Source: Minisyncoccota bacterium (GTDB lineage: Bacteria; Patescibacteriota; Microgenomatia; UBA1400; UBA12028). Taken from it: a stretch of DNA of 64,000 bases. Below, piece after piece: positions 7,559 to 64,000 of the stretch (position 1 is the first letter of the stretch; the number at the start of each line of letters is the position of its first letter). The stretch lies in assembly GCA_016211945.1 (NCBI GenBank), contig JACRHV010000006.1, forward strand, positions 46,723-110,722, in the 5' to 3' direction. Made by a program: the position numbers and the translations under genes. The notes under the pieces were generated by a model. It saw only the letters and a program-made list of their open reading frames with translations, was not told the DNA's origin and ran no database searches.

Positions 7559-7561
7559 CTC

Positions 7562-32793: not shown

Positions 32794-32807
32794 GATCGCG
32801 CCCGTAT

Positions 32808-33914: not shown

Positions 33915-34022
33915 GATTTTATTGTAGCAGGAAAACGAAGATATCCTTTCTACATAACAAAGAACTGTATTGCCTAAAAAAGAGCAACTTCGTTTTTTCT
34001 TCTCATGTCCAAATACAAAAAC

Positions 34023-38161: not shown

Positions 38162-38166
38162 GAAAA

Positions 38167-39978: not shown

Positions 39979-40103
39979 ATAATGTCCTTACTCGTTCCTG
40001 ACTTTCTCCATGGAGGAGTTCACAGTTGCGGCACAGTCCACGATTTCCACGTGGTTCCGAGTTGGATTATGGTAGCAGAGAATATGATGGTTGTGAAGAT
40101 TGA

Positions 40104-41444
40104 ATGTGGAGTGTGGGTGGCGAATACATTATTGATGGATCATTGCGTTTTTATAGAGTGGTAGGTAGGATGGAGCATATGGGATTTGATACATCAATGC
40201 TCGGTGTGGAAGGGGTGGAGGCATTTACTTCTCAGCCCGCTTCAGCTCATACGACAGCTGATGCAGTAGCAGATGAAGGTGTTGTAGATGGTGGAGCCGC
40301 AACGTGGATGCCAACCGCAGACGCCGCCACTAAAAACGTGGCCCCAGAAGATGAGAAAAAACAAAAGAAAGAGTTAAAGGAAGAAGACTACGATCTACTT
40401 GCCGCACTCGTTCGACAGCTCAACGAAGCAAATACCGCCTTTTATATAGAGGAGGCGAAAGCTCCAGAAAATCTCGAGGAGCTTAGAAAAGAACATAAAA
40501 AGAACATGCAAACACTTCATGAGCCCATTCTCCTTACGTTAGGAAATTCCGAGCAAAAAGTAGCCCACATTCTTACTAGAGATTTATTTGATCTTTCCCA
40601 ATCTGCAAAAGTTTTTTTTGAGATTACTCGCGTGCTTCAGGATTCTCCCTCAGAGGAGAAACTTACATATAGACTGGAGTTGGAGCATGTAGTTTCTGAG
40701 GGACTTACTCGAGAAATCGTGCGAAAAACACAAGAAAGTCAGAGAGCTTCTAAAGAAGAACCGCAAACAGAGGAAGAGATAAAAAAGGAAGATGCTAGTA
40801 AGGTTCTTGACAAGATTATTGAGAATCCAAATTTGGACGAAGAAAAGAAAAGCCATTTTCGAAAGCTAAAAGAGGCTTTGTTAGCCCTGCCCGGTGAGTT
40901 CTCAGAACACGTTATACAGGGGACCCATATTGATCAACTTATCGAATTTCTTCTAGTGGGAGGATCGTACGGATCATCCTCTGGAAGTTTTGAACATATG
41001 AAGAAAAAAGGGGAGGATTGGTTGGTTGGACACACACATATCGTAGAAGTTTTTGGCCAGCCACCAGAAGGAAATAATCGATGTTTCCACGCCATGGAGG
41101 AAACACTGTTAGAAATTGGCGACACCGATGTTCAAAACAATATACAGAATAAAAATACAGCAAAAGAATTTCTCGATGAAGAAAAAAAGTTTGATTTTAG
41201 CAAATATAAAATGTGGCTTATCTCAAAATATAAACTCTTTTTTGCCATACAGCGCGATGCTGTGGTGAAAAAACTGAAAGAACAGTTATGTGATGGTCTG
41301 GAAGGAAGAAGAGGGATAAAGGTGAAGGTTAAAGATGAACAAAAAGAAGTAGATGAACGAGAATCAAAAGAACTCAGACTCTCGCAAGACGCTCTAGATT
41401 TATTTTTAGAGATGGCGATGGATGCTACGGAGAAGGAAAAATAA
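40104..41444 (+). CDS. hypothetical acidic Glu/Lys-rich protein (start uncertain)
   Basis: 446-aa ORF, highly charged, predicted helical; divergent from 38167..39978. Confidence 0.45.
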   Translation: MWSVGGEYIIDGSLRFYRVVGRMEHMGFDTSMLGVEGVEAFTSQPASAHTTADAVADEGVVDGGAATWMPTADAATKNVAPEDEKKQKKELKEEDYDLLAALVRQLNEANTAFYIEEAKAPENLEELRKEHKKNMQTLHEPILLTLGNSEQKVAHILTRDLFDLSQSAKVFFEITRVLQDSPSEEKLTYRLELEHVVSEGLTREIVRKTQESQRASKEEPQTEEEIKKEDASKVLDKIIENPNLDEEKKSHFRKLKEALLALPGEFSEHVIQGTHIDQLIEFLLVGGSYGSSSGSFEHMKKKGEDWLVGHTHIVEVFGQPPEGNNRCFHAMEETLLEIGDTDVQNNIQNKNTAKEFLDEEKKFDFSKYKMWLISKYKLFFAIQRDAVVKKLKEQLCDGLEGRRGIKVKVKDEQKEVDERESKELRLSQDALDLFLEMAMDATEKEK

Positions 41445-41558
41445 TCGCTTACTTTTGTAGTAAGACAACTCGATGCCTCTCAGACCAGTAAATCTCTGGT
41501 AATAGAAATGTAAAAATAAAGACAACGCTCCCGCCAATCTCGTGTTAAAATAAGTACC

Positions 41559-44450
41559 ATGGTTACTAGATTAGAAACGCCAGCACAAGTAATAGAGGAA
41601 GTTTCAGAGGAGAGGGTTGGGCCACAAGAAATAAAAAATTTCCCGGAATTTTATGCATTCAATAGAGCACGGGGGACATTATATGACAAAATGCGCGCTG
41701 TTCGTGGAGCTCCCCCAGCAACACCAATTCTTTTGGAGGAACACGCAGCCCTAAGAGTTTTTTTGGACGACATTGAAGCATATACAGACGCGAGCATCTC
41801 TCTTTATGAGAGATTGAAACGTGATGGATATGTCCGTGCAGACGAACTTATGAAGGCGGTGCGTGACGAACTTCGTGTGAAAACGGAATCATTATTTGAG
41901 CGGCCGAATTGTCAAATAGAAATAACCGGTACACAATATCCAGCTGAACAAGTGAAATTAGGATTGTACGCTGCGTCTCGGCTTAAGTTAAGACAGATAT
42001 TATCTCAAGGACTTACCCCATCAAATCTCCGTGAAGCACGGGTGTTGTATCGCGCAATGTTTACTTCGCCCGCCGGGCAAATATCGCTCCAGTCTCATAC
42101 CTTTTTTTCTCAAGAACTTCAAGGGGTTTTACAAGCATATCCAGAATTAATGATGGAAGAACCAGAACCAGTAGACATGAAGGATATTACTGATGCAACA
42201 GTAGAAAATAATGTAAGACTAGAAATTGAACAAATATTGGGACAGTTGGGTATAAGAGTAAGCGTTGATCAAGTGCTCCAAACGATAAATGATTGGCAAC
42301 AACGACTTATAGCGTACGATGATAGTCCTTCTGAAAGGGGAGTTATAAATAACGTTCCAATGCTTTCTAGCCTCGAAGGTGAATTGAGAAAAAAGGGAGA
42401 TGCCTTAACCGCCTTTGATCGAGTAAACAAGGTAGGATTAAAACTAAGATCAATAGCAGATGTATTAGCACAAATCATTCAAGACTCACAAACATTAGAC
42501 AACATCGATGAACGAAGAAGAATGGATGTGTGGGTTGATGCGGAGTTGCGCAATTTAGAAAACTCTATAATCACAAGAACTGGAATAGACTTTAAAACAT
42601 ACATTGAGATGATTTTGGATCCAAATTTTGATCCAAACGCAGCAGATGATGATGCGGACACAAATCTTCAAGATATTATTACGAAACTTGAGGCAGAAAG
42701 AAATAGACTTCTTCAACGAAGAGGAAACAGTCCTGTTGCAAGTAGAGTAGCAAATCAACTCAATGAAGATACTTTAGCGAAGATAGTTGGAGAGTGGATT
42801 GTAAAGGCGCGCGATGCGAAAAGAAAAGTGGGGACGCGGACACCCGCAATACCCCTCGTTGATGAGGATGCGCCTCCTAATGTAGCAAAACCCGACATTA
42901 TAAGAATGTATGAAAAAAGAGGATTATCTCAAAATGAACTTATGATGGAGGCAGATAAATACTTATCTGCATTAGAAAGTTCTGAAGAGGGAACAGGAAA
43001 CATAAAAAATAGAGAAACCGTTGTATATCTTGACGCACTACAAGAACTACTTCAAGGAGAAAAGCGTGAATATGTAAGAAGGCGCATAAGATTGTATGAT
43101 GCAGCATCATATGCTGGTGCAAGTAAATCAATGATTGTATCCTATGATGTCCTAATAAAAGGACAAGATAAAAGTGGGGACATATGGGGGGGGAATGGAT
43201 CAAATAAATTTGACGAAAAGGACTATGATTTCTTTTTAAGAGAATGGGACAAACGTGATCAAGTATCTAGAGTTCTTGATGCATTTGCTTATCTTTTCAG
43301 TACCAAACAAATAAATAATGCACCAAATGAATTTTATGCTCCTAATTATCGAGAAGATGAACCTACAAGGAATAAGTTGTGGGCTGAGGCTGGGAGAATT
43401 TCTGGAGTACAGGGAGACGCACTCACGATAGGAATTTATTTAGCAATCTGTTTGGATATGCGAAGGTATTTTGCTATGGCAGAGTATGCAAGAGGATGGT
43501 CTCCTAGGCATGATTTTGCCGCAACAATTGAATGTGTTCAAAAACATAATCCTAATGTTTCGGCGGCATATAAAATTTCTGGAAAAGGAGAAGAACCTGT
43601 TAATTTTGCATTAACATTTGCAGCGATGCCCCCACAATGGACCAGGCTAGCAGAATTCGATATAGGAGCTCATACATCTCAGGACGTGGCTAGACGAAAA
43701 TTAGATAACCTGCTTTTAGCAGATCGCGCAACGAAATTATACTTAGATACCTATGCCCCCATAAGGCAAAAGAGATATCAATTAATAGACGGGAAAAACC
43801 CATGTCCAACTCTTTATGAATTTTTTGTATTAAGACAAGCGGATAGGCTAAGGGGCAAACCCATGACTCTTAAAGACTATTTCAAGGGATATGACTCATT
43901 TGGGAAACTTTATGAAGAATGTGCAAAAACTATTTCGTTTACCGGTGACGCAAAAAAGGACATGGATATTATTTTAAAAGATGTGAGAAATATTCGTGAG
44001 AATTTGTTTTCAGGAACAAAAGCGCTTCCAATGATTGATGCAGAGTATAGAGCACAGATGATTTTATCCCATATATTTATGTTATTTAAAGAATATAATT
44101 TGAAACATCCAGATGGAGCGAATCTTGACAGTTTGAAAGTTGCTGTAAGAAAACTTCTTGAAGAAGGTGCAACATTTTCCACAGGAGGCTTCGAAGATGA
44201 AGACGGACAACAAGTAAATACACAACAGTTTTTTGTAAGAAGATTTCCAGATTACGTTGCACCGGGACTTGCTGGAAGGGGAACTATTGTTACCTATGCA
44301 TTTCCCGGTACTCTTGCGCGAAAGTATGCGCCCATTTTATCTCCACACAGTTTAGATAGAACTTGGGCGAGAACAACCTGGGCCGAATTTAGAAGACAAA
44401 ATGCGCAGATCGAGCTTCCTGAAGCCCCAATGGAAGAGAAGAAAAAATAA
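41559..44450 (+). CDS. hypothetical 963-aa protein (candidate secreted substrate/effector; no motif)
   Basis: long uninterrupted ORF with normal codon usage; no Walker A, no TM; no relaxase motifs found. Confidence 0.55.
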   Translation: MVTRLETPAQVIEEVSEERVGPQEIKNFPEFYAFNRARGTLYDKMRAVRGAPPATPILLEEHAALRVFLDDIEAYTDASISLYERLKRDGYVRADELMKAVRDELRVKTESLFERPNCQIEITGTQYPAEQVKLGLYAASRLKLRQILSQGLTPSNLREARVLYRAMFTSPAGQISLQSHTFFSQELQGVLQAYPELMMEEPEPVDMKDITDATVENNVRLEIEQILGQLGIRVSVDQVLQTINDWQQRLIAYDDSPSERGVINNVPMLSSLEGELRKKGDALTAFDRVNKVGLKLRSIADVLAQIIQDSQTLDNIDERRRMDVWVDAELRNLENSIITRTGIDFKTYIEMILDPNFDPNAADDDADTNLQDIITKLEAERNRLLQRRGNSPVASRVANQLNEDTLAKIVGEWIVKARDAKRKVGTRTPAIPLVDEDAPPNVAKPDIIRMYEKRGLSQNELMMEADKYLSALESSEEGTGNIKNRETVVYLDALQELLQGEKREYVRRRIRLYDAASYAGASKSMIVSYDVLIKGQDKSGDIWGGNGSNKFDEKDYDFFLREWDKRDQVSRVLDAFAYLFSTKQINNAPNEFYAPNYREDEPTRNKLWAEAGRISGVQGDALTIGIYLAICLDMRRYFAMAEYARGWSPRHDFAATIECVQKHNPNVSAAYKISGKGEEPVNFALTFAAMPPQWTRLAEFDIGAHTSQDVARRKLDNLLLADRATKLYLDTYAPIRQKRYQLIDGKNPCPTLYEFFVLRQADRLRGKPMTLKDYFKGYDSFGKLYEECAKTISFTGDAKKDMDIILKDVRNIRENLFSGTKALPMIDAEYRAQMILSHIFMLFKEYNLKHPDGANLDSLKVAVRKLLEEGATFSTGGFEDEDGQQVNTQQFFVRRFPDYVAPGLAGRGTIVTYAFPGTLARKYAPILSPHSLDRTWARTTWAEFRRQNAQIELPEAPMEEKKK

Positions 44451-44465
44451 AAAATCAAAGGGAAA

Positions 44466-46154
44466 TTAACTCTTCTTTGTGGCGTCTTTCTTATCTGCGA
44501 AAGTTGTATCTCCAACTTTATTTGCAGCCCAATGACCGCCTTTTTTAAATTCTTCTTGGATAGGAACAAACGGGTCCGTTCCTGTTCCGCGAACAAAGTT
44601 TCCAGCGCTAATAAATGCACCTTTGCCAGCATCTGCAGCGGCACCAACTCCAACAGCCCCCTTCTTCAAAATATTCTCTCCAGAAACTCCGCCATATGGC
44701 AACTTTGTTGTATCTGTCCAGTCCAACCCATCCACCAACTTGCCACCCTTCCACCCTTTTTGCAAGTTGGCACTGATCTTTGGTATATACTGGTCGAATG
44801 GGCTCTTCGGATTCCCCAACATCTTGAGAGATATATCGATCGCTTCTGGCATGAGCATGAGGATGCCAATAGCAATGAGGCCTTGGATAGCACCAATGCC
44901 CTTAGAGTCAGCCCAAAATGTACTAATTTGTGGAGCTTGAAATCCCGCAGCCTGACTTGAGTCTGTACCATCAATCCATTTATATCCAACCCCCTTTGTT
45001 TCGCTTTGACCCCCTAAAACCATGGCGAGAAATATCATTGTGATAACAACGGGAAACGGTAGAAGTGTGGCAAAAAGACTGCGCAGCCACTCACTAAAAT
45101 CAAGTTTTCCGGTAAAAAGGTTTAACAAAAGTAATATTGGTGAAAAAATAACACTGATAATAAACTTGACATAACTCATGAGCAGTTTAAAAAATGTTTG
45201 TGTGACAGAGAAGAAAATAACAATGGCAAAAACAAGCTCTGCAATGATAGCACCCGAAACATTCGCAATTTTCCCAAGTCCTTGAAGATAAATATTGCTG
45301 TCTTTGCTGGAGAAAAACCCTTCAACAAGTTTCCCAACAGACAGTGCAGCTCCAGCCGTTGGATTTCCACTTCCTCCACCGAATATGAGTTGTAGTCCAT
45401 TTGAAAAAATATTGTTCGAAAGTGCAATTTTTTCAAGCGTAATTGGTTGTCCAAGTGGATCGGTAAGCGTTGGAGGAAGCAAATTTTGTAACTTAAAGAT
45501 GCCTATGATGAGATATATCATCAAATACATGATATCGATAAGAAAACCACTAATTGCAAACGAAAAAGTAATAGCAAGCGCGGTCCAGAGAAAATTTGGG
45601 ATAGCACTCGTTATGGTTACCGCTGTCTGTCCTCCCCATTTTTGCCGGAACATAATCATAAACCCGATGTACATAAATGCCAGAACAAAGAAGATATACG
45701 CAATGTCGCGAAATGCCTTCCATACTTGAAGAATAGGGCTCAAACTTTTAAACCCAATACCTTGTGCATACGCTTGAGGAACAAAAGGAGAATGTTCTAA
45801 AAGATCTGCAATCCAAACACCAGTATTTGCCGGAGGATGTGTGATCATGGCGGCCATCATATTTCCCATTTGTGGGACAACCCCCTGAATAACACTCTCT
45901 CCATCAGTCGAACGACCTCCAATAAGGATATCGGTCCACGAATGACTATTTCGCACCCAAGTTCCCAGATTATATGCCTCATTGTTAATATTACCCGTAT
46001 CTTGTGTGTGTTTGACCGCGTCATTAAATTCTTCATTGCTTGGGGTTACGAGCGATCTTCGCAAGTCTTCTGAAGGCCTTTCTGCAACAGCAAACACGGT
46101 ATGGGGAGTAAAAAAAAGCACAATGATCACAAGAAAAGAGAAAACGCGTTTCAT
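44466..46154 (-). CDS. VirB6/TrbL-like polytopic membrane protein with signal peptide and Gly-rich C-terminal tail
   Basis: start placed at 'MKRVFSFLVIIVLFFTPHTVFAVA' signal peptide; ~120-aa extracytoplasmic N-domain then at least 6 TM segments ('IAYIFFVLAFMYIGFMIMF', 'LWTALAITFSFAISGFLIDIMYLMIYLIIGIF' ...). Confidence 0.5.
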   Translation of the reverse strand: MKRVFSFLVIIVLFFTPHTVFAVAERPSEDLRRSLVTPSNEEFNDAVKHTQDTGNINNEAYNLGTWVRNSHSWTDILIGGRSTDGESVIQGVVPQMGNMMAAMITHPPANTGVWIADLLEHSPFVPQAYAQGIGFKSLSPILQVWKAFRDIAYIFFVLAFMYIGFMIMFRQKWGGQTAVTITSAIPNFLWTALAITFSFAISGFLIDIMYLMIYLIIGIFKLQNLLPPTLTDPLGQPITLEKIALSNNIFSNGLQLIFGGGSGNPTAGAALSVGKLVEGFFSSKDSNIYLQGLGKIANVSGAIIAELVFAIVIFFSVTQTFFKLLMSYVKFIISVIFSPILLLLNLFTGKLDFSEWLRSLFATLLPFPVVITMIFLAMVLGGQSETKGVGYKWIDGTDSSQAAGFQAPQISTFWADSKGIGAIQGLIAIGILMLMPEAIDISLKMLGNPKSPFDQYIPKISANLQKGWKGGKLVDGLDWTDTTKLPYGGVSGENILKKGAVGVGAAADAGKGAFISAGNFVRGTGTDPFVPIQEEFKKGGHWAANKVGDTTFADKKDATKKS

Positions 46155-46218
46155 GTCTTCGTATTGTACAGAACAATCGAGAGAACAACAAGCATTTTCC
46201 TGGTACAATACCAGAGAT

Positions 46219-49200
46219 ATGGTTCCTCGATTTTCTCTCTTTATTACCTCTGTTATTTCCATTTTTGTTTTTCTGGCATTTCCTTCCGGTATTCGAGCGG
46301 TAGAGTTGGGAACGCATGTTGCCCATTTTGATCGTGGAGCGGAGATCGGTGTTTTAGGCCTTATTCGAAGCAAGTTGAGCAAACAAGATGGATATCCCGT
46401 TACCATCAACATTGATCCGCAATGGTCAACAGCAGAGATCCAAGAACTTGCCGACAAGGCAGAAGGCTTTCGTGTTGCTCTTCGTATTATTAGCGTTTCA
46501 AGCAAAGCAACCCCAGAAGAAATGCAAACGCTTGTTCAACAACTCAATGGTGTGCGTTGGAAGACTACAGGAAAACCTGTTGTTGTGTTGGGAAACGAAC
46601 TGAATAACTTAGTAGATGAATGGAAAAGTATTGCTGTTTCAGTTGAGGCTGCGGGAGCTGCGTACACACCACTTCATGATGTGATATGGTCAGGGTCGCC
46701 AAAATTAGACATGGGAAGGTACGACCTTGCTGCTGCAACCATTGACCCATACCATCCGAACAACTGGAAACTTTTTGTGTCAGGGGCGGGGAGGGCATAT
46801 ACACAGCACAATACAATCTTTGTAGCAAACATCTATGAAAACAGTGCAGAGGACACAAAAAAACGGATTGAAGAAATCAAATCGGGAATTTCCGGAGTAC
46901 CGTCAAAAACAATACTCACAGAGTATGGACCAAAAGACCCCAAATCGCCGCTTGCTGAGTACATGCGGTTCTATAAAGAGAACGCTCCGCCATCCAATGT
47001 GGAATATGCGACCGCACTACTCGCTAATTATTGTAAGAAAGATAAGGCAGTTTTTGGATATTTCTACTATATAGAAGGAAAAGTGTACACGATTGATGGT
47101 GATGAGGTGGACCCACAAACCTGTCTCGGGGCAAAATCACTCACTGATGAATCAAAAACCCCAGATGATGAGGTAGACGGCATCTATGTCTACAAAGATA
47201 TCTATAAAAATGTGCTGTTAAATGGGGAAAAAGGAGGGAAGGAAAGTGCGTCAAGATACGTCATGATGTGTGCTCCGCAATTTTGGACAGACGCTGAGAT
47301 TCAAGACCAAGATAAAAAAATCTATTGGGAAAAACTTGGCGACAAGGCAAAAACACTCAGCGAGTACTGCACAAGTGAGATAGGATCAAATACGAACGAA
47401 CCAAACTGCGTATTCGATCCTGTCACTGCAAACTTTACTGTTATTAATGATAATCTTACGGTTCCGTTGTATAGGAAGGCGACCTTTAATGATAAAGGTC
47501 AGCAAATGGACAATAACAGGGCAGAAAGCATTGAGTCGTTTTTTGGAACGAACACAAAAGAGGGAAGAAAAACAGGGGATCCGCTTTTATATTCACCCAA
47601 CGTCAAACTTCTTTCAAAGGCGCAGTACTGCACTCAAACAGTTCGATACTTAAAGGCAATTGAGATGATGTGCCAAGAACCGCAAGCACAGCAATCAACA
47701 ACAGACAAAGAAATAGTGCCTAGGGGAAAATGCACATTGAACAATGAATTCGAGAACAGTCGAAAACAAAAAGTGCGCTATTTGGATATTCTCAAACAAG
47801 TAAAAGACAACGCGGCTGCTCAGGGGCTACAGACACCAGAAGACTATTGTGATCTTGTAGTAAAAAAACAAGACCCCAATCTCATGAAGGACCTTGCCCA
47901 AGTCCAACCGCTCACAAAAAATGCGTTTAAAATTGGATACCTTGTCTATTACAATACCGGGAGGTATAAAAAAGACTCAAATGATCCGGAAGACAAAGCC
48001 GCTTTTCAGGATAGCTCAGAATATTTCCACCCGGTCTACAGAACATTGCGCGATTACTATGCCAATGTGACATTCCAAGTAATTCCCTTCTTAGTTCCTG
48101 CAAATGTATTTAGCACCTCGTCACAGGAAGACGTTGTTGGAAATTCGTTCGCCTCGTTTGATAGTCCGTACACAACAGTATTTCAAACACTCATGCCGCA
48201 AGCAAAGATAAACCAATTGGCAGAAAGTGAACAAAAAAGAAGAGTGATGATTGAGTCTCAACTCGATCAACCATGGAATGCATTCAATGACGCTAGTCAG
48301 GAAAAACCGTACATTCAATGTCCTGTTTGCGATGACAGTTATAACAAGAGAGGATATGTTCCGTCGGTGGGGTCTTTAGCGGCAAACAAAACGTATCTCG
48401 CTTTTGCAAAAACGATATGGAGACGCATCAATGCGGGAATCTACACAAAAGAATTTGTGCAAAATTTGGATGTAAAACAGGGAAATGAACTCGTGGCCCA
48501 ACCTCCTGATATTTGGAATAGTTGCAATGTGGCGCCGGAACTCGTCCGCGGTGAGTCTGCGCAAGCACTCCATTCACAGGGTGGCATTTCCTTGATAAAG
48601 GATGGAAAAGAAACGTTGTGGGGGAAGGTGAAGCAGTCGGCGACAGAGATTACATCGCTCATCCGTGCTCCTAAGGGTACTCGGAGAGATCCGTATGAAT
48701 ATTACGTTCGGGGATATCTCCTTTTACCGCAAGAATACGGATATCTTCTCTCGACAGAACAGGATTTTCTGCGAGCGTTGATCCCGTACTCTGCACAAAA
48801 AAATATTTTAGAGACAGAGCAAAAGAAGAACGACTTTAACGCATTTGGTAATATCGCAGGACTTGATCCGTCTAAAGCAGACTATGATAAACAAGTTCCG
48901 CTATGGAATCGTTTTCTTCGCTTAAACGGCCAGGTTTTTGGACTAAACGATCTGACCGCAGACTCTACGGGAAAGCACGGCAAAGATGGGAATCCGGACA
49001 CATATTACACAGAATCTAAAGATGAATATGAAGCACGCGTCGCAAAAGCAAGACAAGATTGTGCAAATAGAGGGATTTTGCCAAGAGACTGCTCAATTCC
49101 GGAGCGGAAGAAAACAGAGATTACAGCAAAGCAAACATCACAAAATCCAGGATATAAAGAGGGAAAAACCGATTTTCGTCCCATCCTTCCGGGAGGATGG

Positions 49201-50028
49201 TTAGCGCGGGGCATCTTTGAGTTGATGGCACACATTACTTCGAGTAAAGGAAGTGCCAACTTTCAAGATAAATATTGTGGACTGGAAGACTATTTATTGG
49301 GGACAAACTGTGCGGGTGCGGGAAGTACAAGTTCGATCAAAAATACAACAACCTCATCTACAAAGGGAGATATCGCGTGTATAAATGTATGGGTTGATGA
49401 AGCAACGGCACAGGCACACGCACAAGACATTTTAGCAAGTCTTCCTTCACGCGCAGATTGGGGGAAATATTTTTCTGGTTATTTGAGTGATCCGGTAAGG
49501 CAGTGCAAGGATCCAACCACAAACCCAAGTCCGAGTGAATACGATAGCGTGGCAAAGCAATATCTCTTTGAGTCTGTTCCTGAATGCGGTGGAGTGTCGT
49601 GCTATTCGTATATTGTTCAGCGCACATTATCTGCAAAGACATCGGACGGTAAGGTTGTTGATCCCTACATCGCAATTTCTATTGCATTAAATGAAAATGG
49701 TGGACTAAAAACAGCGAGGAAAGATCGGATGAGTCAACATTTTGGAGTGGTGACTCCTATTACGGGTCACTCAAAAGAATGTCCGGAGGATAACGAGTAC
49801 ATGGGCAGAATTGATGAGAAACTCGACATCATGCTCCAAACGCTCATCGCAGGATATAAGGGAAAGGATACTTTGGGTGCAGATGGTGTTGCGGCATTAG
49901 AGCGATATAAATCGGGAAGTAATGCAAGACCGCTTGAAGATCAAACGTATAGTCAGAAAATGATACAACTTACACAGATCATCAGCGGTAACGCATACTC
50001 ACCACTGTGTACAGGGAAAACTCTTTAA
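46219..50028 (+). CDS. giant (1269-aa) secreted protein; N-terminal region with GH-A-like 'VVVLGNELNN' motif
   Basis: start placed at 'MVPRFSLFITSVISIFVFLAFPSGIRA' signal peptide (track ORF start at 45982 would overlap divergent gene); 30+ Cys; no repeats. Confidence 0.6.
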   Translation: MVPRFSLFITSVISIFVFLAFPSGIRAVELGTHVAHFDRGAEIGVLGLIRSKLSKQDGYPVTINIDPQWSTAEIQELADKAEGFRVALRIISVSSKATPEEMQTLVQQLNGVRWKTTGKPVVVLGNELNNLVDEWKSIAVSVEAAGAAYTPLHDVIWSGSPKLDMGRYDLAAATIDPYHPNNWKLFVSGAGRAYTQHNTIFVANIYENSAEDTKKRIEEIKSGISGVPSKTILTEYGPKDPKSPLAEYMRFYKENAPPSNVEYATALLANYCKKDKAVFGYFYYIEGKVYTIDGDEVDPQTCLGAKSLTDESKTPDDEVDGIYVYKDIYKNVLLNGEKGGKESASRYVMMCAPQFWTDAEIQDQDKKIYWEKLGDKAKTLSEYCTSEIGSNTNEPNCVFDPVTANFTVINDNLTVPLYRKATFNDKGQQMDNNRAESIESFFGTNTKEGRKTGDPLLYSPNVKLLSKAQYCTQTVRYLKAIEMMCQEPQAQQSTTDKEIVPRGKCTLNNEFENSRKQKVRYLDILKQVKDNAAAQGLQTPEDYCDLVVKKQDPNLMKDLAQVQPLTKNAFKIGYLVYYNTGRYKKDSNDPEDKAAFQDSSEYFHPVYRTLRDYYANVTFQVIPFLVPANVFSTSSQEDVVGNSFASFDSPYTTVFQTLMPQAKINQLAESEQKRRVMIESQLDQPWNAFNDASQEKPYIQCPVCDDSYNKRGYVPSVGSLAANKTYLAFAKTIWRRINAGIYTKEFVQNLDVKQGNELVAQPPDIWNSCNVAPELVRGESAQALHSQGGISLIKDGKETLWGKVKQSATEITSLIRAPKGTRRDPYEYYVRGYLLLPQEYGYLLSTEQDFLRALIPYSAQKNILETEQKKNDFNAFGNIAGLDPSKADYDKQVPLWNRFLRLNGQVFGLNDLTADSTGKHGKDGNPDTYYTESKDEYEARVAKARQDCANRGILPRDCSIPERKKTEITAKQTSQNPGYKEGKTDFRPILPGGWLARGIFELMAHITSSKGSANFQDKYCGLEDYLLGTNCAGAGSTSSIKNTTTSSTKGDIACINVWVDEATAQAHAQDILASLPSRADWGKYFSGYLSDPVRQCKDPTTNPSPSEYDSVAKQYLFESVPECGGVSCYSYIVQRTLSAKTSDGKVVDPYIAISIALNENGGLKTARKDRMSQHFGVVTPITGHSKECPEDNEYMGRIDEKLDIMLQTLIAGYKGKDTLGADGVAALERYKSGSNARPLEDQTYSQKMIQLTQIISGNAYSPLCTGKTL

Positions 50029-50030
50029 CA

Positions 50031-50468
50031 TTATTTATCCGGAAGCTCAATCTGAAATGTTTTTATCGATTCTACGCCGGTAAAACTGGAAATAAAGTTC
50101 AGTGCAATAAAGCCGGAAACGGATAACGCGATCCCAATAAAAGCTGCGGTGATTGTTTTTTGTCCCGTTTCGGTTCCTTTGGGATTTCCGCCGGAAGTTG
50201 AGTACAAAAGTGCTCCAACAATAAGCATAACAAATGAGGCAACTCCTACGGCAGTGACCGCAATGGCAAGGATGTTCGAAACAACGCACTCTATACCAAC
50301 AAGCGTTGCGACGTCTTGTTCATTTGTGCCCTTTCCGACACATTTTGGATTAATCGTTGTCCACTCAGAAGTACTCTGAGCGTATACAGGAGAGGTAGAG
50401 ATGGAAAAAGCAATGAGAAACGAAAAAAGAAGAAACATTGTTCGAGAAAAAATCGAGTGTTTTTGCAT
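50031..50468 (-). CDS. VirB2/TrbC-like two-TM pilin candidate, paralog 1 (own transcription unit)
   Basis: signal-like N-term, TM1 'AVGVASFVMLIVGALLY', loop 'STSGGNPKGTETGQKTITAAF', TM2 'IGIALSVSGFIALNFI'. Confidence 0.55.
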   Translation of the reverse strand: MQKHSIFSRTMFLLFSFLIAFSISTSPVYAQSTSEWTTINPKCVGKGTNEQDVATLVGIECVVSNILAIAVTAVGVASFVMLIVGALLYSTSGGNPKGTETGQKTITAAFIGIALSVSGFIALNFISSFTGVESIKTFQIELPDK

Positions 50469-50500
50469 AAAAGAATTGTATCACACCAGGGAAAGTAAAC

Positions 50501-50526
50501 AAAAAGCCCCGGTTCCCCGGGGCCTT
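50501..50526 (-). terminator. rho-independent terminator downstream of pilin-like paralog 2
   Basis: minus-strand RNA: GCCCCGG-GGAA-CCGGGGC followed by UUUUU. Confidence 0.6.
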
Positions 50527-50545
50527 AACTTCAATAAAAAAAAGA

Positions 50546-50884
50546 TTAATACCCTTTTGGAAGCGTTGCTCCAATATTGAAGACATCAACTCCAAAGAAG
50601 TACGCAACAACCTGCATCAATGCATATGACGCTGCAACAATCGCCAAACCAACAAGTGCGGCGGTAATTTTGTTTCGCGCATTCTCTGTTTTTCCTTTAT
50701 CTCCACCCGATGTAATCCACTCAACGCCACCGAGAACGAGATATGCGAAAACAAGAATAGCAGAAACCAACAACGCGACGTTCAAGACGCGCGAGAAAAG
50801 AAGACCGATGTCGGTGATCTTGAACCCATTCGATTGGGGATCAATCGTGATTGGTGGTTTTGCTTGTGCGAGTAGGGCGAGCAT
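50546..50884 (-). CDS. VirB2/TrbC-like two-TM pilin candidate, paralog 2
   Basis: 'AYLVLGGVEWITSGGDKGKTENARNKITAALVGLAIVAASYAL'. Confidence 0.55.
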   Translation of the reverse strand: MLALLAQAKPPITIDPQSNGFKITDIGLLFSRVLNVALLVSAILVFAYLVLGGVEWITSGGDKGKTENARNKITAALVGLAIVAASYALMQVVAYFFGVDVFNIGATLPKGY

Positions 50885-50933
50885 ATTTCCTCCTTTTGTC
50901 CTAGATGTATTCTATATGTTCTTTCTCTGTATA

Positions 50934-51251
50934 TCAAGGGTTTACTATTGTAATGTCGAGTCCAAAGAAATAGTTGATAATGCGGAAGATTGCAAAGACA
51001 CTCACCATCACAGCCAAACCAATGAGCCCTTGTGTAATCATCTGTTTTGCGTTATCTATTTTTCCTTTATCGCCACTTGCAATAATCCACATGAATCCAC
51101 CAAGAACCATGTATGCCAAAGCGGCAACTGAAGCAACGGCCAGAGCCAGCCCAGCATATCGTCCAATCAATGTTCCCAAGTCCAGTTGAACTTTTGGTCC
51201 CAAATTCGATCGGATATCAACTTTTTGCGCAAGTAGTATTGGTAACGTCAT
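50934..51251 (-). CDS. VirB2/TrbC-like two-TM pilin candidate, paralog 3
   Basis: 'AYMVLGGFMWIIASGDKGKIDNAKQMITQGLIGLAVMVSVFAI'. Confidence 0.55.
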   Translation of the reverse strand: MTLPILLAQKVDIRSNLGPKVQLDLGTLIGRYAGLALAVASVAALAYMVLGGFMWIIASGDKGKIDNAKQMITQGLIGLAVMVSVFAIFRIINYFFGLDITIVNP

Positions 51252-51260
51252 ACTATTCCT

Positions 51261-51830
51261 TTATTTACATCCTCCGCGTCCGTCCGGATTTACCCCAGAG
51301 TCGCATGGAGCGTTTCCCGCATTACAGTTACAGGTGTCGCTAATCCCAAATCCACACATACCCTGATTTTTTCCACCGCATGTATTACAAATATTTGGAT
51401 TATTGAGAGTAATTGGAGTTTTCCCCTGACAATACGGATTCGAAGACCCCGTTCCAGTAGAGGAGGTTCCGCCAAGATCTCCAGAGATGCGTGTGAAATC
51501 TGGTGCCAAGAGATCAATTCCAAGTGCGGTGCCAAAGAATGTACTGATGGCCGCGACTGAGAATAATACAGCCAATCCAATAAGACCCTGTGTGATTCTA
51601 TCTTTTGCTTGCTCGATTTTCCCCTTATCACCTCCCGCAGAAATCCAGGTCAACCCACCCATAATCATGTATGCAACAACCGCCAATCCACCAAGAACGA
51701 GGGAAGTTTGCCACAGAATTCCAATATATTTCCCCAAACCTGTACCAGCAACATCGGGATTAGCTGCGTTTTGCAGTCCTGCAGGGAGAGCGGGATTTGA
51801 GATGTCGGCCAACATTGTAGATAACGTCAT
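51261..51830 (-). CDS. VirB2/TrbC-like two-TM pilin candidate, paralog 4, with Cys-rich C-terminal extension
   Basis: 'AYMIMGGLTWISAGGDKGKIEQAKDRITQGLIGLAVLFSVAAI' then 60-aa tail with 10 Cys ('CNTCGGKNQGMCGFGISDTCNCNAGNAPCDSG'). Confidence 0.55.
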   Translation of the reverse strand: MTLSTMLADISNPALPAGLQNAANPDVAGTGLGKYIGILWQTSLVLGGLAVVAYMIMGGLTWISAGGDKGKIEQAKDRITQGLIGLAVLFSVAAISTFFGTALGIDLLAPDFTRISGDLGGTSSTGTGSSNPYCQGKTPITLNNPNICNTCGGKNQGMCGFGISDTCNCNAGNAPCDSGVNPDGRGGCK

Positions 51831-51831
51831 A

Positions 51832-52209
51832 TTATTGCCACAACCCTTCCAACATTTTTACGGGACTGAGAATACTGATTCCCAACACACCACCAACAAT
51901 ACTAATGATAAACTGAGCAAGAATGACAATAATGAGTCCGATCGCAGCGTTCGTCATTTGAGTTCGAGCAGCCTCAACCTTTCCTTTATCCCCACTGGCG
52001 GAAAGCCAAGCCAACCCACCGAAAACGAAGTACATAAGAAACATAAGTCCGCCAATAATAGTGAAGAAACCCAGAAAAACAGAGAGAAATTTTTCAATTG
52101 CTCCGCCCCCTGCCTCGGCTCCAGTTCCATCTGCTGGTCGGAAATACGGACTCGTTCCCTGGATTGTTCCTTGAAGAGGGTTTTGCGCAAGTAAAGAGAG
52201 TACGTTCAT
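51832..52209 (-). CDS. VirB2/TrbC-like two-TM pilin candidate, paralog 5
   Basis: 'MYFVFGGLAWLSASGDKGKVEAARTQMTNAAIGLIIVILAQFI'. Confidence 0.55.
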   Translation of the reverse strand: MNVLSLLAQNPLQGTIQGTSPYFRPADGTGAEAGGGAIEKFLSVFLGFFTIIGGLMFLMYFVFGGLAWLSASGDKGKVEAARTQMTNAAIGLIIVILAQFIISIVGGVLGISILSPVKMLEGLWQ

Positions 52210-52718
52210 CGCGTTCTTCCCCCGTTATTGTTCCGATCTCGTAGTGAATCAGGTAGCGCTTTGAGAATAGCGTCAATGTCTCCATTGGATGAGGAACCGG
52301 AGTTTCTTCCCGGACCCCCCTCTGGACCACCGCCAGATGAAGCAGGAGCTCCCGGGCCTTGAATAACAGGACTCACAAAAAAAGTAGCATCCTTGAAGAG
52401 GAGAAATCCAGTCAAAGCCATAAGGGCAGGGGCAAGAATCATAATGACCAAACCCCACAGACTCATGTTTAATTTACTCATGACTTTCTCATGTGCTTTT
52501 GCATCTCCTGCTGAAGTAAGATAGGTATATCCAGCCATGACAATGTTATACAGAGCAATGAGTCCCCCTACAATAATTGCCATTCTTAACAGATTTGTTG
52601 TGAGAGTAATAAGTCCACCACTAGCACCGTAATCTGCAATCGCAGCTGGCGGTGTTATTGTTCCAAAAAATGTTGAGTCTGCCATTATTCTTTTTCCTAC
52701 ATTACTACGGACCACCAT
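52206..52718 (-). CDS. VirB2/TrbC-like two-TM pilin candidate, paralog 6 (divergent loop, Gly/Ser/Asn-rich C-terminal extension)
   Basis: 'LYNIVMAGYTYLTSAGDAKAHEKVMSKLNMSLWGLVIMILAPAL' then 'PGAPASSGGGPEGGPGRNSGSSSNGD'; real start possibly the internal Met of 'MADSTFF'. Confidence 0.5.
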   Translation of the reverse strand: MVVRSNVGKRIMADSTFFGTITPPAAIADYGASGGLITLTTNLLRMAIIVGGLIALYNIVMAGYTYLTSAGDAKAHEKVMSKLNMSLWGLVIMILAPALMALTGFLLFKDATFFVSPVIQGPGAPASSGGGPEGGPGRNSGSSSNGDIDAILKALPDSLRDRNNNGGRTR

Positions 52719-53037
52719 TCAATATGGGCTGTCCTATGACAATTTGTACAACTTGGATGATCCAATAAGCAGAAAGGATGACCAAAAAACCAATGACTGC
52801 AGTTTGAATAGTCTGCATTCCTTTCTCTGTTCCCTTAGGATCTCCTCCTGACATAAGTATAGTAAGTCCGCCGCCAATGAGCAAGCCAAAAATGATAATT
52901 CCAGCAAACACATACATGTTTGGAAGAACAACTTTATTTAAAAAATCTGCTGGAGTAGCAAAGACGTCTGCAACGGAAGAGGAGCTGTTCAATTTATATT
53001 TCTCACCCAAATCAATAGCAATAAGCGTGCCATTCAT
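52705..53037 (-). CDS. VirB2/TrbC-like two-TM pilin candidate, paralog 7
   Basis: 'IFGLLIGGGLTILMSGGDPKGTEKGMQTIQTAVIGFLVILSAYWIIQVVQIV'. Confidence 0.55.
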   Translation of the reverse strand: MNGTLIAIDLGEKYKLNSSSSVADVFATPADFLNKVVLPNMYVFAGIIIFGLLIGGGLTILMSGGDPKGTEKGMQTIQTAVIGFLVILSAYWIIQVVQIVIGQPILNGGP

Positions 53038-53060
53038 GATGGAAGTATTGTATCACAGGT

Positions 53061-53459
53061 TTATTGAGGAGTTGCAGACGATGTTCCGGTTTTTTGTGTC
53101 GCACTTTCTGTCGCTGTGCTTTCTTTTTTTGGTGTTCCTGCTTCTGCTGTAACCGCAGTCTTCTTTAATCCCTTTTCATCTGTCTCGGTAATTTCTTTGA
53201 TAATAGGGAAAGTTGACAGAACTTCATCGGGATACAACTTTCTTTGTCTCAAGTCTTGAAGCGTTTTTATATCAAGTACGGGGGTAAGCGGTTGAACTTG
53301 TCGCTGAACTGTTGGCGGAATAGACGATTTGTGAAGAGAAAAATATATTGTCATTCCGATCCAAACTCCAACAGCAACCAAGGATACGACAAAAATCGTC
53401 AGGATAATCTGTCTTCTAAAAAGCGATTTGATGAATGGTTGTTCCTGTGCTGCGTTCAT
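53061..53459 (-). CDS. hypothetical single-pass membrane protein (Thr/Ser-rich C-terminus)
   Basis: TM 'IILTIFVVSLVAVGVWIGMTIYF'; co-oriented between PilO-like gene and pilin-like array. Confidence 0.45.
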   Translation of the reverse strand: MNAAQEQPFIKSLFRRQIILTIFVVSLVAVGVWIGMTIYFSLHKSSIPPTVQRQVQPLTPVLDIKTLQDLRQRKLYPDEVLSTFPIIKEITETDEKGLKKTAVTAEAGTPKKESTATESATQKTGTSSATPQ

Positions 53460-54133
53460 GGTGTTTTTTCATCCTTCTTTGCAGAACTTCCTGGAAGTTG
53501 TATTGGAGTGCCATAGTATGCAACGCGAAAAGCAATAGTTGTAATGAGTGAGCTGGTTTTCTCAAATTCGTCTCGTTTCGCATTCATTACAAGCGAATCA
53601 ACCGAAACATACCGATCCATTGCCAACATCTCGGCAATAAACGCGCGGACGAGTGGGTATGGGGCCTTCAGATTGACGCTGATCAAATAACTTGTGAGCT
53701 GAGGAGCGGTGCTCGTTGCTTCTTTTGGAACTTGTGTGACCTGCAGCGAGTTAATGAGTACGGTATGTGCCGTTGCGACATACTCAAGACGTCGCATGAA
53801 TCCATCAAAATTTGGTGTGTTCGGTATTGCTTTATGAAGTAAGCTTACTTCATTCTTTAACGTCGGAAGCTCACTACTTAATGTAGAAAGTGAGGCTATT
53901 TTTTTTGAAAGTGCGTCGCTCGTTTTTCTCCGGTCCTCGATATCATGGAGCAGTTGTGACATGGTGAGCAACGTTGGACGAATGGCAAAAAGCGCGAGAA
54001 GGATGACCGCGAGAAGTGTTGCAATAAGCTCTGTGGAGACCTTTGCAATCGGTTTTTGATAAAACTGTTGCAGCTGCCTCACCGTTTGGTTGCGTGGTGC
54101 GGAGGGTATTGAAGAAAACGGTGAGTGTATCAT
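53456..54133 (-). CDS. PilO-like type IV pilus/secretion inner-membrane assembly protein
   Basis: 225 aa; short cytoplasmic N-term, TM 'LIATLLAVILLALFAI', coiled coil, then ~120-aa C-domain; overlaps PilN-like gene by 4 nt. Confidence 0.45.
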   Translation of the reverse strand: MIHSPFSSIPSAPRNQTVRQLQQFYQKPIAKVSTELIATLLAVILLALFAIRPTLLTMSQLLHDIEDRRKTSDALSKKIASLSTLSSELPTLKNEVSLLHKAIPNTPNFDGFMRRLEYVATAHTVLINSLQVTQVPKEATSTAPQLTSYLISVNLKAPYPLVRAFIAEMLAMDRYVSVDSLVMNAKRDEFEKTSSLITTIAFRVAYYGTPIQLPGSSAKKDEKTP

Positions 54134-54705
54134 GACGTTTTCCCTCCCGGTATGGGTTGTATTTGCACGCGAATAGAAAACTCTAGGCCGGCACCACCCT
54201 GCGTATTGCTTTTAATTTGATCGACATACAATGCTTTTGTTTGCGGTTGTTTTTGAAGTCTGCGCACAAGAACAGCCAACGATTCAGGAGTAAGTGCGTT
54301 CCCAGTAATCTGCACTTCCTGTGCGCGAATCTGAACAAGTGTATAGACCACATCTTTAGGAATGCTTTTTGCGAGAACATCAAGCGCACTCAACGGATCC
54401 TGTGTCCCTTTTTGTTGTTGGAGGAACTCCGTTTTTTTCTGGATGAGACGTACATCCGACTCTAATGTTCCGTACGAATCAACAATGTAGGACTTTTGTG
54501 TAATGGATGAGTTCAGATCAGTAAGATCGCGGTCGAGTTTAAAACGAGAGGCGAAACTGATAATGACAACAATTTCAGTAAAAATAACAAGGTAGCGACC
54601 AACAGTGGAGGCCCACGCCATAATGCGCCCAACGGGAGTCTCAAAAAAAGGATCCTGAGGAAGCAAATTTATCGACAGATGGCGGGGCTGGACGCTGGTC
54701 TGCAT
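54130..54705 (-). CDS. PilN-like assembly protein (INLLP motif)
   Basis: 191 aa; N-terminal 'LSINLLPQDPFF' (PilN INLLP PilM-binding motif) followed by TM 'YLVIFTEIVVIISFA' and periplasmic domain. Confidence 0.55.
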   Translation of the reverse strand: MQTSVQPRHLSINLLPQDPFFETPVGRIMAWASTVGRYLVIFTEIVVIISFASRFKLDRDLTDLNSSITQKSYIVDSYGTLESDVRLIQKKTEFLQQQKGTQDPLSALDVLAKSIPKDVVYTLVQIRAQEVQITGNALTPESLAVLVRRLQKQPQTKALYVDQIKSNTQGGAGLEFSIRVQIQPIPGGKTS

Positions 54706-54775
54706 AAAAATATGATAGCAGAAAAAGAAGATGGGAGGCTGGGAGTTCTGGTGAAAAGCGTAAAATAGAGGGGGT

Positions 54776-55309
54776 ATGAAATATAATTATTCTGAGGCAG
54801 ACGTTTTACTTCTTCAATCTGGTGATGTTCGTGCTGTAGAACGATGGTTTCGTACGTTTCAAAAACCACTGTTCGCCTTCATTCTTACTCGAGTATCTGA
54901 TCTGCATGATGCAGAAGAATTGTGTCAAAATACTTTTCTCTCTTGTCTTGAAACACTCCCGTTGTATAGAGGAACATCATCGCTTTTTACTTGGATGTGT
55001 GCGGTGGCAAAGCATGAGATTGCGGATTACTTTAGGAAAAAATATGCCAAACGCGCACTACAACTCATTCCATTTGGAGAAACATTGTTGCCCGAACATC
55101 TTCATACTATGCACGATGTTTCGGATACGGTTCGTAGGGTACTCAAGAAACTAACGCAAAAGGAGCGAGAACTTCTTTTTCTGAAATACATAGACAACGC
55201 AAGTGTAAAATCAATCGCGCATTCATTGGGGATGAGTATGAAAAGTATAGAGTCGATGTTATATAGGGCAAGAAAAGCGTTTCAAAGGATTTATGCAGAA
55301 CACATCTAG
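54776..55309 (+). CDS. RNA polymerase sigma factor, ECF (sigma-70 regions 2 and 4)
   Basis: region 2 'LSCLETLPLYRG...FTWMCAVAKHEIADYFRK'; region 4 HTH 'ASVKSIAHSLGMSMKSIESMLYRARKAF'. Confidence 0.8.
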   Translation: MKYNYSEADVLLLQSGDVRAVERWFRTFQKPLFAFILTRVSDLHDAEELCQNTFLSCLETLPLYRGTSSLFTWMCAVAKHEIADYFRKKYAKRALQLIPFGETLLPEHLHTMHDVSDTVRRVLKKLTQKERELLFLKYIDNASVKSIAHSLGMSMKSIESMLYRARKAFQRIYAEHI

Positions 55310-55532
55310 CAAAGATTTTCAATATCAGTTGTATACACTTGCTCGGGAGCAAAAAGAACTGATGGAAACGAGTTTTCTCCCAAGGTGGATGGGGGGTGGT
55401 GCGGTATGGTTTGCAACACACGCTTTTTTGAGTATTGTTAGTCTTGTTTTTTTTGTATGCGTCGTTATCATGTCGTTTTGGTTTCCAACATTCTTGCACT
55501 GGGCTGACCTGCTCATAGGGAGGCCGCAATGA
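55293..55532 (+). CDS. small membrane protein, possible anti-sigma factor
   Basis: 79 aa, overlaps sigma-factor stop; one TM 'AFLSIVSLVFFVCVVIMSFWF'. Confidence 0.35.
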   Translation: MQNTSSKDFQYQLYTLAREQKELMETSFLPRWMGGGAVWFATHAFLSIVSLVFFVCVVIMSFWFPTFLHWADLLIGRPQ

Positions 55533-55846
55533 TCTCGATAAAAAACATCTCATGGGCGTTGGTATACACGCTGTTTGAGATTACACAGGGATTTTTCTTG
55601 CATCCATATCAAACGATGCGACAAGTTATTCGCGATCGAGTGTTTGTGTGGACTATTGGAATGCCACTTGTGCTCTGGGCAGTACTCATTTTTGTCTGGA
55701 GAATAGGATGGAATCTCTTGTTTTCATTAATACCTTTTTCTGTCTTTTGGCTTTTTCTTGCACTGTGGATATCAGGATCAATACTTTTGTATCAACTCCT
55801 TCTCCTCTATCTTTTTTATCGATTCCTCCGGGCAAAAGTTGCGTGA
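55529..55846 (+). CDS. small polytopic membrane protein
   Basis: 105 aa with 3 hydrophobic segments; ATGA overlap with upstream ORF. Confidence 0.4.
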   Translation: MISIKNISWALVYTLFEITQGFFLHPYQTMRQVIRDRVFVWTIGMPLVLWAVLIFVWRIGWNLLFSLIPFSVFWLFLALWISGSILLYQLLLLYLFYRFLRAKVA

Positions 55847-63692: not shown

Positions 63693-64000
63693 TCAGAGTA
63701 TCTGGATTCCGAAGATGATCTGCACAATTTGAATGACCCAGTACGAAACAAATAAAAGAATAAATCCAATAGCTGCCGAAGTAATTTTTTGTTTTCCAGA
63801 CTCTTGCGATTTTGGTTCTGTAGCCCCAAACAACATCTCAAAACCACCAACGATAATCATCACAAAAAGAATAATTCCACTTGCGGTGTAAAGGTAGGGA
63901 AGGAGAGCGGTGAGGATTGCACCAAAAGTGATTACATTACTACTTGTCAAACCTCCTCCCAAGTTGATACCAATTGCATCATCAATATTCTTCCGAATTT
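63693..64000 (-). CDS. VirB2/TrbC-like two-TM pilin candidate, paralog 8 (5' end beyond window)
   Basis: 'IILFVMIIVGGFEMLFGATEPKSQESGKQKITSAAIGFILLFVSYWVIQIVQII'; C-terminus nearly identical in pattern to paralog 7 ('SAYWIIQVVQIV'); reading frame stays open to the window edge. Confidence 0.45.
   Translation of the reverse strand, partial: IRKNIDDAIGINLGGGLTSSNVITFGAILTALLPYLYTASGIILFVMIIVGGFEMLFGATEPKSQESGKQKITSAAIGFILLFVSYWVIQIVQIIFGIQIL

Follow-up and report, generated by a model that had tools for sequence, protein, structure and literature searches.

The genes for PilN and PilO, members of the alignment subcomplex of type IV pili (T4P), that head an array of seven VirB2-like pilin genes in a Microgenomatia bacterium are part of a three-gene cassette, PilN-PilO-X, and this cassette stands alone in Microgenomatia. 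Judged from gene order and phylogeny, its position beside the pilin array is a lineage-specific joining of two modules and not evidence that PilN and PilO assemble VirB2-like pilins. The DNA analysed, here called the window, is a 64 kb stretch from this bacterium, a member of the candidate phyla radiation (CPR), and all window coordinates refer to that stretch. A sequence-only reading of the window had proposed a hybrid assembly platform from the adjacency of the pair and the array. That proposal was not supported by comparison with related loci: the modules are separate elsewhere and linked only in one clade, and the array keeps a promoter-like element.

PilN and PilO homologues

PilN had been recognized by an INLLP motif followed by one transmembrane (TM) segment, and the protein indeed scores 46.7 bits against PF05137, for which the cut-off is 22.8 (E 3.4e-12, Pfam). 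Its N-terminus, MQTSVQPRHLSINLLPQDPF (in a fuller reading ...HLSINLLPQDPF), precedes a single hydrophobic helix and includes the peptide SINLLP at residues 11–16, or SINLLPQDPF at residues 11–20. In an alignment of 48 homologues sharing 34–94 % identity, N13 and D18 of this motif never vary, and conservation of L14, P16 and F20 reaches at least 90 %. The peptide aligns with IRINLLP of Myxococcus xanthus PilN and corresponds to the element by which PilN docks onto PilM in the solved structures of the two (PDB 2ych and 5eou). The protein is a genuine PilN homologue that carries a PilM-docking peptide, and it is predicted from this peptide to bind PilM.

An AlphaFold2 (AF2) model built from the homologue alignment (predicted local distance difference test, pLDDT, 79) consists of a disordered N-terminal peptide, a long helix (residues 24–99) and a ferredoxin-like C-terminal domain (residues 104–182) in the order alpha-beta-beta-alpha-beta-beta. 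The best PDB folds found for it with Foldseek were the periplasmic domains of EpsL, PulL and XcpY, PilO, and Thermus thermophilus PilN, and a family profile of the 48 homologues found M. xanthus PilN (3jc8) in PDB with E 9.5e-4. The window PilN has the bitopic layout, with one TM segment, a coiled coil and a ferredoxin-like domain outside the membrane, and is most conserved in the TM and juxtamembrane residues 36–65 (VGRYLVIFTE...SRFKLDRDLTDLN), where T43 is invariant and E44 nearly so. Database searches with PilN returned CPR proteins only, several of them already called PilN by NCBI or JGI; the best database matches of the window PilN and PilO were 95 % and 94 % identical, respectively. As the sequence-only reading had pointed out, no pilM adjoins this gene: it is not encoded downstream of pilM, and the gene upstream is instead a divergent one for an extracytoplasmic function (ECF) sigma factor (Table 1).

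The second gene encodes a genuine PilO, and the PilO-like architecture claimed for it was upheld. The check with the hidden Markov models (HMMs) PF05137 and PF04350 that had been called for placed both proteins above the cut-off, PilO scoring 31.2 bits against PF04350 (cut-off 22, Pfam); PilO also scores 22.5 bits against T2SSM_b (PF10741, cut-off 21.7) and matches GspM of NCBIfam below the cut-off of that model. In a profile search of PDB it found M. xanthus PilO (E 5.4e-10) and Pseudomonas aeruginosa PilO (E 9e-6), and the same two proteins were the top Foldseek matches (3jc8_O at 1e-6 and 2rjz at 5.5e-6) of its AF2 model (pLDDT 74), which combines a helix at residues 28–102 with a ferredoxin-like domain at residues 109–208. 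The protein consists of a conserved cytoplasmic LQQFYQKPIAKVS motif, a TM segment, a coiled coil and the ferredoxin-like domain, and is most conserved at TM and juxtamembrane residues 21–59 (LQQFYQKPIAKVS.EL...FAIRPTL), with E35 highly conserved (invariant in alignment A5). Since PilN and PilO each have a conserved Glu in the TM segment, they may have a specific partner within the membrane.

The overlap of 4 nt between the two genes was also confirmed by direct reading of the sequence. The PilN stop and PilO start codons share ATGA at 54133–54130, through which PilO is translationally coupled to PilN, and the PilO stop and X start codons likewise share ATGA at 53459–53456.

The PilN-PilO-X cassette in Microgenomatia

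When GTDB species genomes were scanned with PilN, relatives were present in 219, and 80 loci were taken from these. Adding the window itself and five loci from metagenome assemblies gives a cassette set of 86 loci (individual loci are designated by L numbers). Genes in the fetched loci were called as simple longest open reading frames (ORFs) and searched with HMMs built for this analysis. The order PilN-PilO-X is conserved, with PilN in 86/86, PilO in 83/86 and X in 80/86, and several of the absences fall at contig ends. An exhaustive profile search for PilN gave 322 clusters (50 % identity) at E ≤1e-30, and a weak family member from this search (E 1e-38) retains the order PilN-PilO-X-Y. No fusion to PilM was found among the 150 best PilN family representatives, which are approximately 100–255 aa long.

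Protein X has one TM segment, a conserved segment of approximately 45 aa outside the membrane with the consensus ..LAKPLxPxID...L..kR.Ys.eEL..FPI, and a Pro/Thr/Ser-rich tail, and has no match in Pfam or NCBIfam. It was considered as an analogue of PilP and rejected as such: with neither a beta-sandwich domain nor a family match, its likeness to PilP is only positional.

Directly after the cassette, 66 of the 86 loci have on the same strand a gene for Y, an Ig-domain surface protein of approximately 520 aa (Pur_ac_phosph_N/fn3 and Big_13), and in these 66 loci PilN-PilO-X-Y form a same-strand run of four genes with gaps of 9–287 nt. Upstream of the cassette there is usually murJ (75 loci), together with rpsT and lepA. 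Y was not found anywhere in the 64 kb window.

The Y proteins (for example L002:11817–13370, + strand, and likewise in 65 other loci) have a conserved N-terminal K-x-I-P-T-x-x-G-L TM segment followed by P-R-A-x-P and, C-terminally, a P-x-S-G-S motif plus a TM segment, which resembles a sorting signal. In a comparison of L002, L003 and L118 (the SmpB of L118 having been identified by eye only), murJ-PilNOX-Y is flanked in some lineages by a block comprising SmpB, a protein of approximately 650 aa, DUF5657 and a protein of approximately 220 aa, and in others the same block flanks SpoIID, a pilin pair and the pilin array. This distribution suggests repeated rearrangement at one chromosomal spot. 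The titles of many of the GTDB records (L007, L011, L014, L018, L041, L042, L059 and others) read 'uncultured Pseudomonadales', 'TM6', 'Vitreimonas', 'Limisphaerales' or 'Lentimicrobiaceae', in disagreement with the CPR-type gene content, and look like submitter mislabels or mis-binned contigs.

The VirB2-like pilin array

The pilins encoded next to the cassette had been described as VirB2-like and not type IV, and that part of the sequence-only reading stands. All seven match PF18895 (T4SS_pilin; T4SS, type IV secretion system), three of the seven above the cut-off, and the G/FTLIE-type prepilin motif was not found in a motif scan. When metagenomes were scanned with aligned array members, 80 loci were obtained around orthologues of pilin 6 that share 50–90 % identity. 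Comparison of 13 diverse loci (the window, L003, L008, L009, L100, L104, L107, L112, L116, L118, L126, L133 and L138) revealed that the array members are positional orthologues, with identities that average 44–65 % at the same position versus 28–41 % between positions. Since identity at the same position exceeds that between positions, the array is, by this measure of sequence similarity, made up of seven different subunits in a fixed order. Such arrays had been suggested in the literature to be a fast-varying antigenic repertoire; seven ordered paralogues with their own promoter would be better explained by a structure of several subunits than by antigenic variation.

Most of these pilins have short leaders. 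Pilins 1 and 3–6 of the window (starts at 53037, 52209, 51830, 51251 and 50884) have leaders such as MNVLSLLA/Q, MTLPILLA/Q and MLALLA/Q (the slash marks an AxA-like site), and at positions 1–6 of many loci only 6–14 residues precede this site (elsewhere, for example, MSLIPQALA/A and MINSVYA/A), the ORF not being extendable upstream. A leader of 6–14 residues is too short to include the hydrophobic core that a Sec signal peptide has, which suggests an unusual short leader, or processing or cyclization as in TrbC and VirB2. Pilin 7 of the window clade has a full signal peptide (...SPVYA/QST in the window). The C-terminal third of pilin 4 includes a tail of approximately 60 aa with 10 Cys (...NPYCQGKTPITLNNPNICNTCGGKNQGMCGFGISDTCNCNAGNAPCDSGVNPDGRGGCK), which is missing from the positional orthologues in L003, L008 and L009.

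A further PF18895 pilin gene (32.8 bits) lies at the edge of the window (63693–63962, - strand). In relatives, a pair or triplet of PF18895 genes adjoins a gene for a SpoIID-domain protein, 3–8 kb upstream of the array.

Linkage of the cassette and the array

Of the 86 cassette loci, no more than six also have VirB2-like genes, even with matches at E ≤1 counted, and these six plus the truncated L006 make up exactly one clade of the PilN tree. Trees were built by neighbour-joining with midpoint rooting. Two further members of the linked clade were found by look-up, and in cassette loci outside the window clade no PF18895-like gene lies within 10 kb, even at E ≤1. Viewed from the array the outcome is the same: among the loci of the pilin scan, PilN-PilO-X is present upstream only in the closest (L091, L093 and L094 in full, L087 in part), and 29 of the 36 non-redundant complete seven-gene arrays have no adjoining cassette, 21 of those 29 with at least 2.5 kb of upstream sequence.

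In a tree of the seven concatenated pilins the linked arrays form one nested clade, three nodes from the midpoint root, and the nearest outgroups (L140, L164, L143 and L145, then L113, L128 and L120) are all unlinked. Three of them (L143, L145 and L120) have the ECF sigma gene directly upstream of the array. In L143, two genes for small membrane proteins follow the sigma gene in the same order as in the window, and the neighbourhood of NUDIX, mevalonate and UPP-synthase genes is also as in the window. Overall, a divergent sigma gene was found within 300 nt of the array in seven unlinked loci, and in eight linked loci it lies 1.7–2.6 kb from the array, a distance that fits the length of the cassette, which sits between the two. 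Because the sigma gene abuts the array in unlinked outgroups, the cassette would have been inserted between sigma gene and array, and insertion in the ancestor of the window clade is the simplest history. The linked arrangement has been kept in at least ten distinct loci, down to approximately 42–55 % PilN identity.

The sigma gene is a recurrent neighbour of the array (window 54776–55846, + strand; L143:7053–8120; L120:6914–7465; also L167 and L168) and may regulate it. Genes for proteins of approximately 79 and 105 aa, the latter with an 'HPYQ' motif, come after it in the window clade and in L143.

Transcription signals

X and pilin 1 are encoded on the same strand, and no terminator-like hairpin was found between them. 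Of 37 non-redundant loci, 28 (7/8 linked and 21/29 unlinked) have a TG(n)TAnnAT sequence in the 28 nt that precede pilin 1, versus a background of 1.1 % in the same DNA. In the window this is TGATACAAT, which on such conservation is the array's own ancestral promoter-like element, retained after insertion of the cassette. The sequence-only reading had also held the pilin genes to be co-operonic with PilN and PilO, and here it was not sustained: with a conserved -10-like element before pilin 1 in linked and unlinked loci, a single operon is not established. Some co-expression of cassette and array would perhaps arise by read-through.

The corresponding element upstream of PilN, TGCTATCAT, recurs in L001 and L093, and similar ones are found in L007, L009 and L094. 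In both units the -10-like elements end 6–10 nt before the ATG, and there is no Shine-Dalgarno sequence before PilN or pilin 1. Given how close these elements are to the ATG and the lack of a Shine-Dalgarno sequence, the cassette is probably transcribed from a promoter of its own into a leaderless mRNA, and the same features suggest a leaderless or near-leaderless mRNA for the array unit. An ECF-type promoter was sought between the sigma gene and PilN, and only housekeeping-type -10-like elements were found.

Search for other T4P genes

Scans with Pfam, phmmer and the prepilin motif found no gene for PilM, PilB/PilT, PilC, PilD or a prepilin in the 64 kb window, the Pfam scans taking in every ORF of at least 300 aa and most of those of at least 110 aa. 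The PilM and PilT queries were P. aeruginosa sequences validated against PDB, and neither these nor the prepilin motif gave a match in the 166 fetched loci and the window. Precomputed Pfam annotation of eight related cassette loci likewise showed no PilM.

Features of the window

The coordinates of the cassette, the array and the features next to them are listed in Table 1.

Table 1. Features of the cassette and array region of the window
Feature	Position	Strand	Evidence
PilN homologue, 191 aa	54130..54705	-	PF05137, motif conservation, AF2 model and Foldseek, M. xanthus PilN profile match
PilO/GspM homologue, 225 aa	53456..54133	-	PF04350, T2SSM_b, NCBIfam GspM, PDB profile matches, AF2 and Foldseek
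Protein X, 132 aa, third cassette member	53061..53459	-	In 80/86 related loci, always directly after PilO
Extended -10-like TGCTATCAT, ends 6 nt before PilN ATG	54712..54720	-	Read directly
Extended -10-like TGATACAAT, inside the 23 nt gap between X stop and pilin 1 ATG, ends 9 nt before ATG	53047..53055	-	Read directly
Seven-gene VirB2-like (PF18895) pilin array	50031..53037	-	Pfam, positional orthology
Array genes 1–4	53037–52705, 52718–52206, 52209–51832, 51830–51261	-	
Array genes 5–7	51251–50934, 50884–50546, 50468–50031	-	
Terminator-like hairpin, 10 pairs (7 GC) then T-rich tract, between pilin 6 and pilin 7	50503..50526	-	
ECF sigma gene, divergent from PilN	54776..55309	+	TIGR02937 76.5 bits (NCBIfam); Pfam sigma-70 ECF match
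Two small membrane-protein genes after ECF sigma	55293–55532, 55529–55846	+	

Elsewhere in the window, dnaA and dnaN followed by a gene for a VirB4-like ATPase (29982–31844) lie within 27171–39978, as do genes for a PrgI-like protein (32808–33914) and an M23 peptidase protein of 1056 aa (34991–38161). This T4SS cluster of VirB4 and PrgI type is 18 kb away from the linked genes. Several large ORFs at 38167–50028 have no Pfam match. A gene for a PKD-domain protein followed by a sortase gene is found at 6173–8221 (+ strand), and one for a tyrosine recombinase (phage-integrase family) close to the start of the window, at 773–1639 (- strand).

Proposed function of the cassette

The comparisons above show the homology and architecture of the proteins, the conservation of the motif, how the gene orders are distributed, the direction of the rearrangement and the promoter-like elements; PilM binding, a PilN-PilO-X complex and a role in T4P are inferred. 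The reading that we favour, with moderate confidence, is that the cassette performs the ordinary function of a T4P alignment subcomplex with a PilM encoded elsewhere in the genome. Strict conservation of INLLP implies a PilM-type partner elsewhere, because this peptide is the PilM-docking element. By analogy with the family, PilN and PilO would pair via their coiled coils and their ferredoxin-like domains outside the membrane, and the cytoplasmic INLLP peptide of PilN would dock onto an actin-like PilM, whose gene would most likely be at the main T4P locus, beside pilB, pilT, pilC and pilD. X would act as a third membrane anchor, and its long Pro/Thr-rich tail could reach into the wall. In the window lineage, the cassette would have moved into the gap between the ECF sigma operon and an independently conserved seven-gene array, which kept its promoter. 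CPR genomes generally encode PilM, PilB, PilC and PilT (PMC6744442, PMC12206443). For a closed Microgenomates genome, PilM, PilB, PilT, PilC and PilD are described at one locus and PilN and PilO are not mentioned (PMC7143001), which is what would be expected if a detached cassette supplies them.

Three considerations weigh against this assignment. No gene for PilM, a PilT/PilB-type ATPase or a prepilin was found within 10 kb of the cassette in any of the 86 loci, so that homology and the docking motif by themselves carry the assignment to T4P. If the T4P loci of Microgenomatia had their own divergent PilN and PilO, the cassette would be paralogous to them and do something else. Finally, the retention of the linkage down to such low PilN identity, together with the lack of a terminator between X and pilin 1, means that the cassette and the array may still be coupled to some extent, functionally or by regulation.

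The isolation of the cassette from T4P genes keeps alive the strongest of the rival explanations, which we nevertheless consider doubtful, namely that PilN, PilO and X form a T4P-independent envelope module, a paralogous scaffold specific to Microgenomatia that would work with Y (for example in anchoring or export) and bind an FtsA- or MreB-like actin through INLLP. The four-gene run with Y, the usual housekeeping and cell-envelope neighbours murJ, rpsT and lepA, the unusual conservation of the TM segments with a Glu in both PilN and PilO, and the fact that X is not a recognized T4P component are all consistent with such a module. Set against them are the intact PilM-docking motif, the scores of PilN and PilO above curated cut-offs and the best structure matches, which are PilN and PilO of the type IVa pilus (T4aP). 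The window clade, moreover, lost the link to Y and kept the cassette. Nor is separation from the ATPase and platform genes peculiar to this cassette, as the alignment genes are split from them in other T4P systems; in Thermus, pilMNOWQ lies apart from pilF.

That the PilN/PilO/X scaffold of the window clade polymerizes or presents the seven VirB2-like pilins of the Patescibacteria T4SS is improbable. PilN, PilO and X would then have been recruited to the head of the array to support the assembly or anchoring of a seven-subunit VirB2-type filament, a T4P/T4SS chimera to which we give little credence. The idea draws on the shared strand, the 23 nt gap and the missing terminator between X and pilin 1, the persistence of the arrangement in at least ten distinct loci across a broad range of PilN identity, the absence of the usual downstream Y from the whole window and the VirB4/PrgI-type T4SS cluster 18 kb away. 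To our knowledge, no described T4SS uses proteins of the PilN/PilO type. The linkage arose once, cassette and array are each conserved separately elsewhere, the array retains its own promoter-like element and the strictly conserved PilM-docking peptide points to a T4P-type cytoplasmic partner. The cells are single-membrane and without the VirB7/9/10 core. That the assembly of VirB2-like pilins in Patescibacteria is unexplained (PMC12102498) speaks for a chimera; that PilN and PilO are not mentioned in that study speaks against it. If true, a hybrid T4P/T4SS machine would matter much more than the ordinary reading, since VirB2 pilus assembly in single-membrane CPR bacteria is unexplained and the host of the chimera would be a single-membrane cell without any of the known T4SS pilus-biogenesis factors. 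Given the comparative evidence, such a machine is unlikely.

Regulatory coupling only, with a cassette that serves T4P and was fixed at the head of the array for co-expression under the ECF sigma factor during host contact, is likewise improbable: seven unlinked arrays have the divergent sigma gene directly upstream, the linked cassette lies exactly between sigma gene and array and no terminator follows X, but both units carry housekeeping-type extended -10-like elements and no obvious ECF-type promoter.

Comparison with known systems

Several features of the window recall the MPF-FATA-like T4SS of Patescibacteria (PMC12102498), for which 'VirB2 arrays' of 2–11 genes, abundant in Microgenomatia, and an origin-proximal layout have been reported: the VirB4-like and PrgI-like genes next to dnaA and dnaN, and the seven PF18895 pilins. 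However, that report names neither PilN nor PilO as a component or neighbour, and the array normally does not adjoin PilN and PilO in the loci compared here. The T2SS (type II secretion system) proteins GspL and GspM (EpsL, PulL, XcpY and PulM) resemble the pair in that the PilN C-terminal domain folds best like GspL and PilO matches T2SSM_b and GspM. GspL, however, fuses a PilM-like cytoplasmic domain to its PilN-like part, whereas the window PilN, at 191 aa, has the docking peptide only.

There is also a likeness in architecture to the T4aP PilM-PilN-PilO(-PilP-PilQ) systems of M. xanthus, P. aeruginosa and T. thermophilus (PDB 3jc8, 2rjz, 4bhq, 5eou and 2ych), in which PilN and PilO are built in the same way and pilN and pilO are adjacent and translationally coupled, and it is exactly to T4aP PilN and PilO that the profile and fold matches point. 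Unlike these systems, the cassette has no upstream pilM, nor one within 10 kb in the 86 loci, and PilP and PilQ are missing, as would be expected of a cell with a single membrane. X, at the position of pilP, is short and bitopic and its tail is disordered, and the TM segments of the cassette proteins are unusually conserved.

The T4P loci of other CPR bacteria, such as loci 1 and 2 of Nanosynbacter lyticus TM7x (PMC12206443), come from the same superphylum and the same envelope type, and their PilN and PilO are likewise short, divergent and weakly detected by standard models. There, pilM-pilN-pilO sit with pilB, pilC, pilT, pilD and pilins, whereas no T4P gene accompanies the PilN-PilO-X cassette. 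PilN and PilO themselves are known families, and what is uncommon is the detached three-gene cassette with its new partner X. If the favoured reading is right, the T4P alignment proteins PilN and PilO travel as a detached cassette in Microgenomatia, and locus-based surveys of CPR pili may therefore score them as missing.

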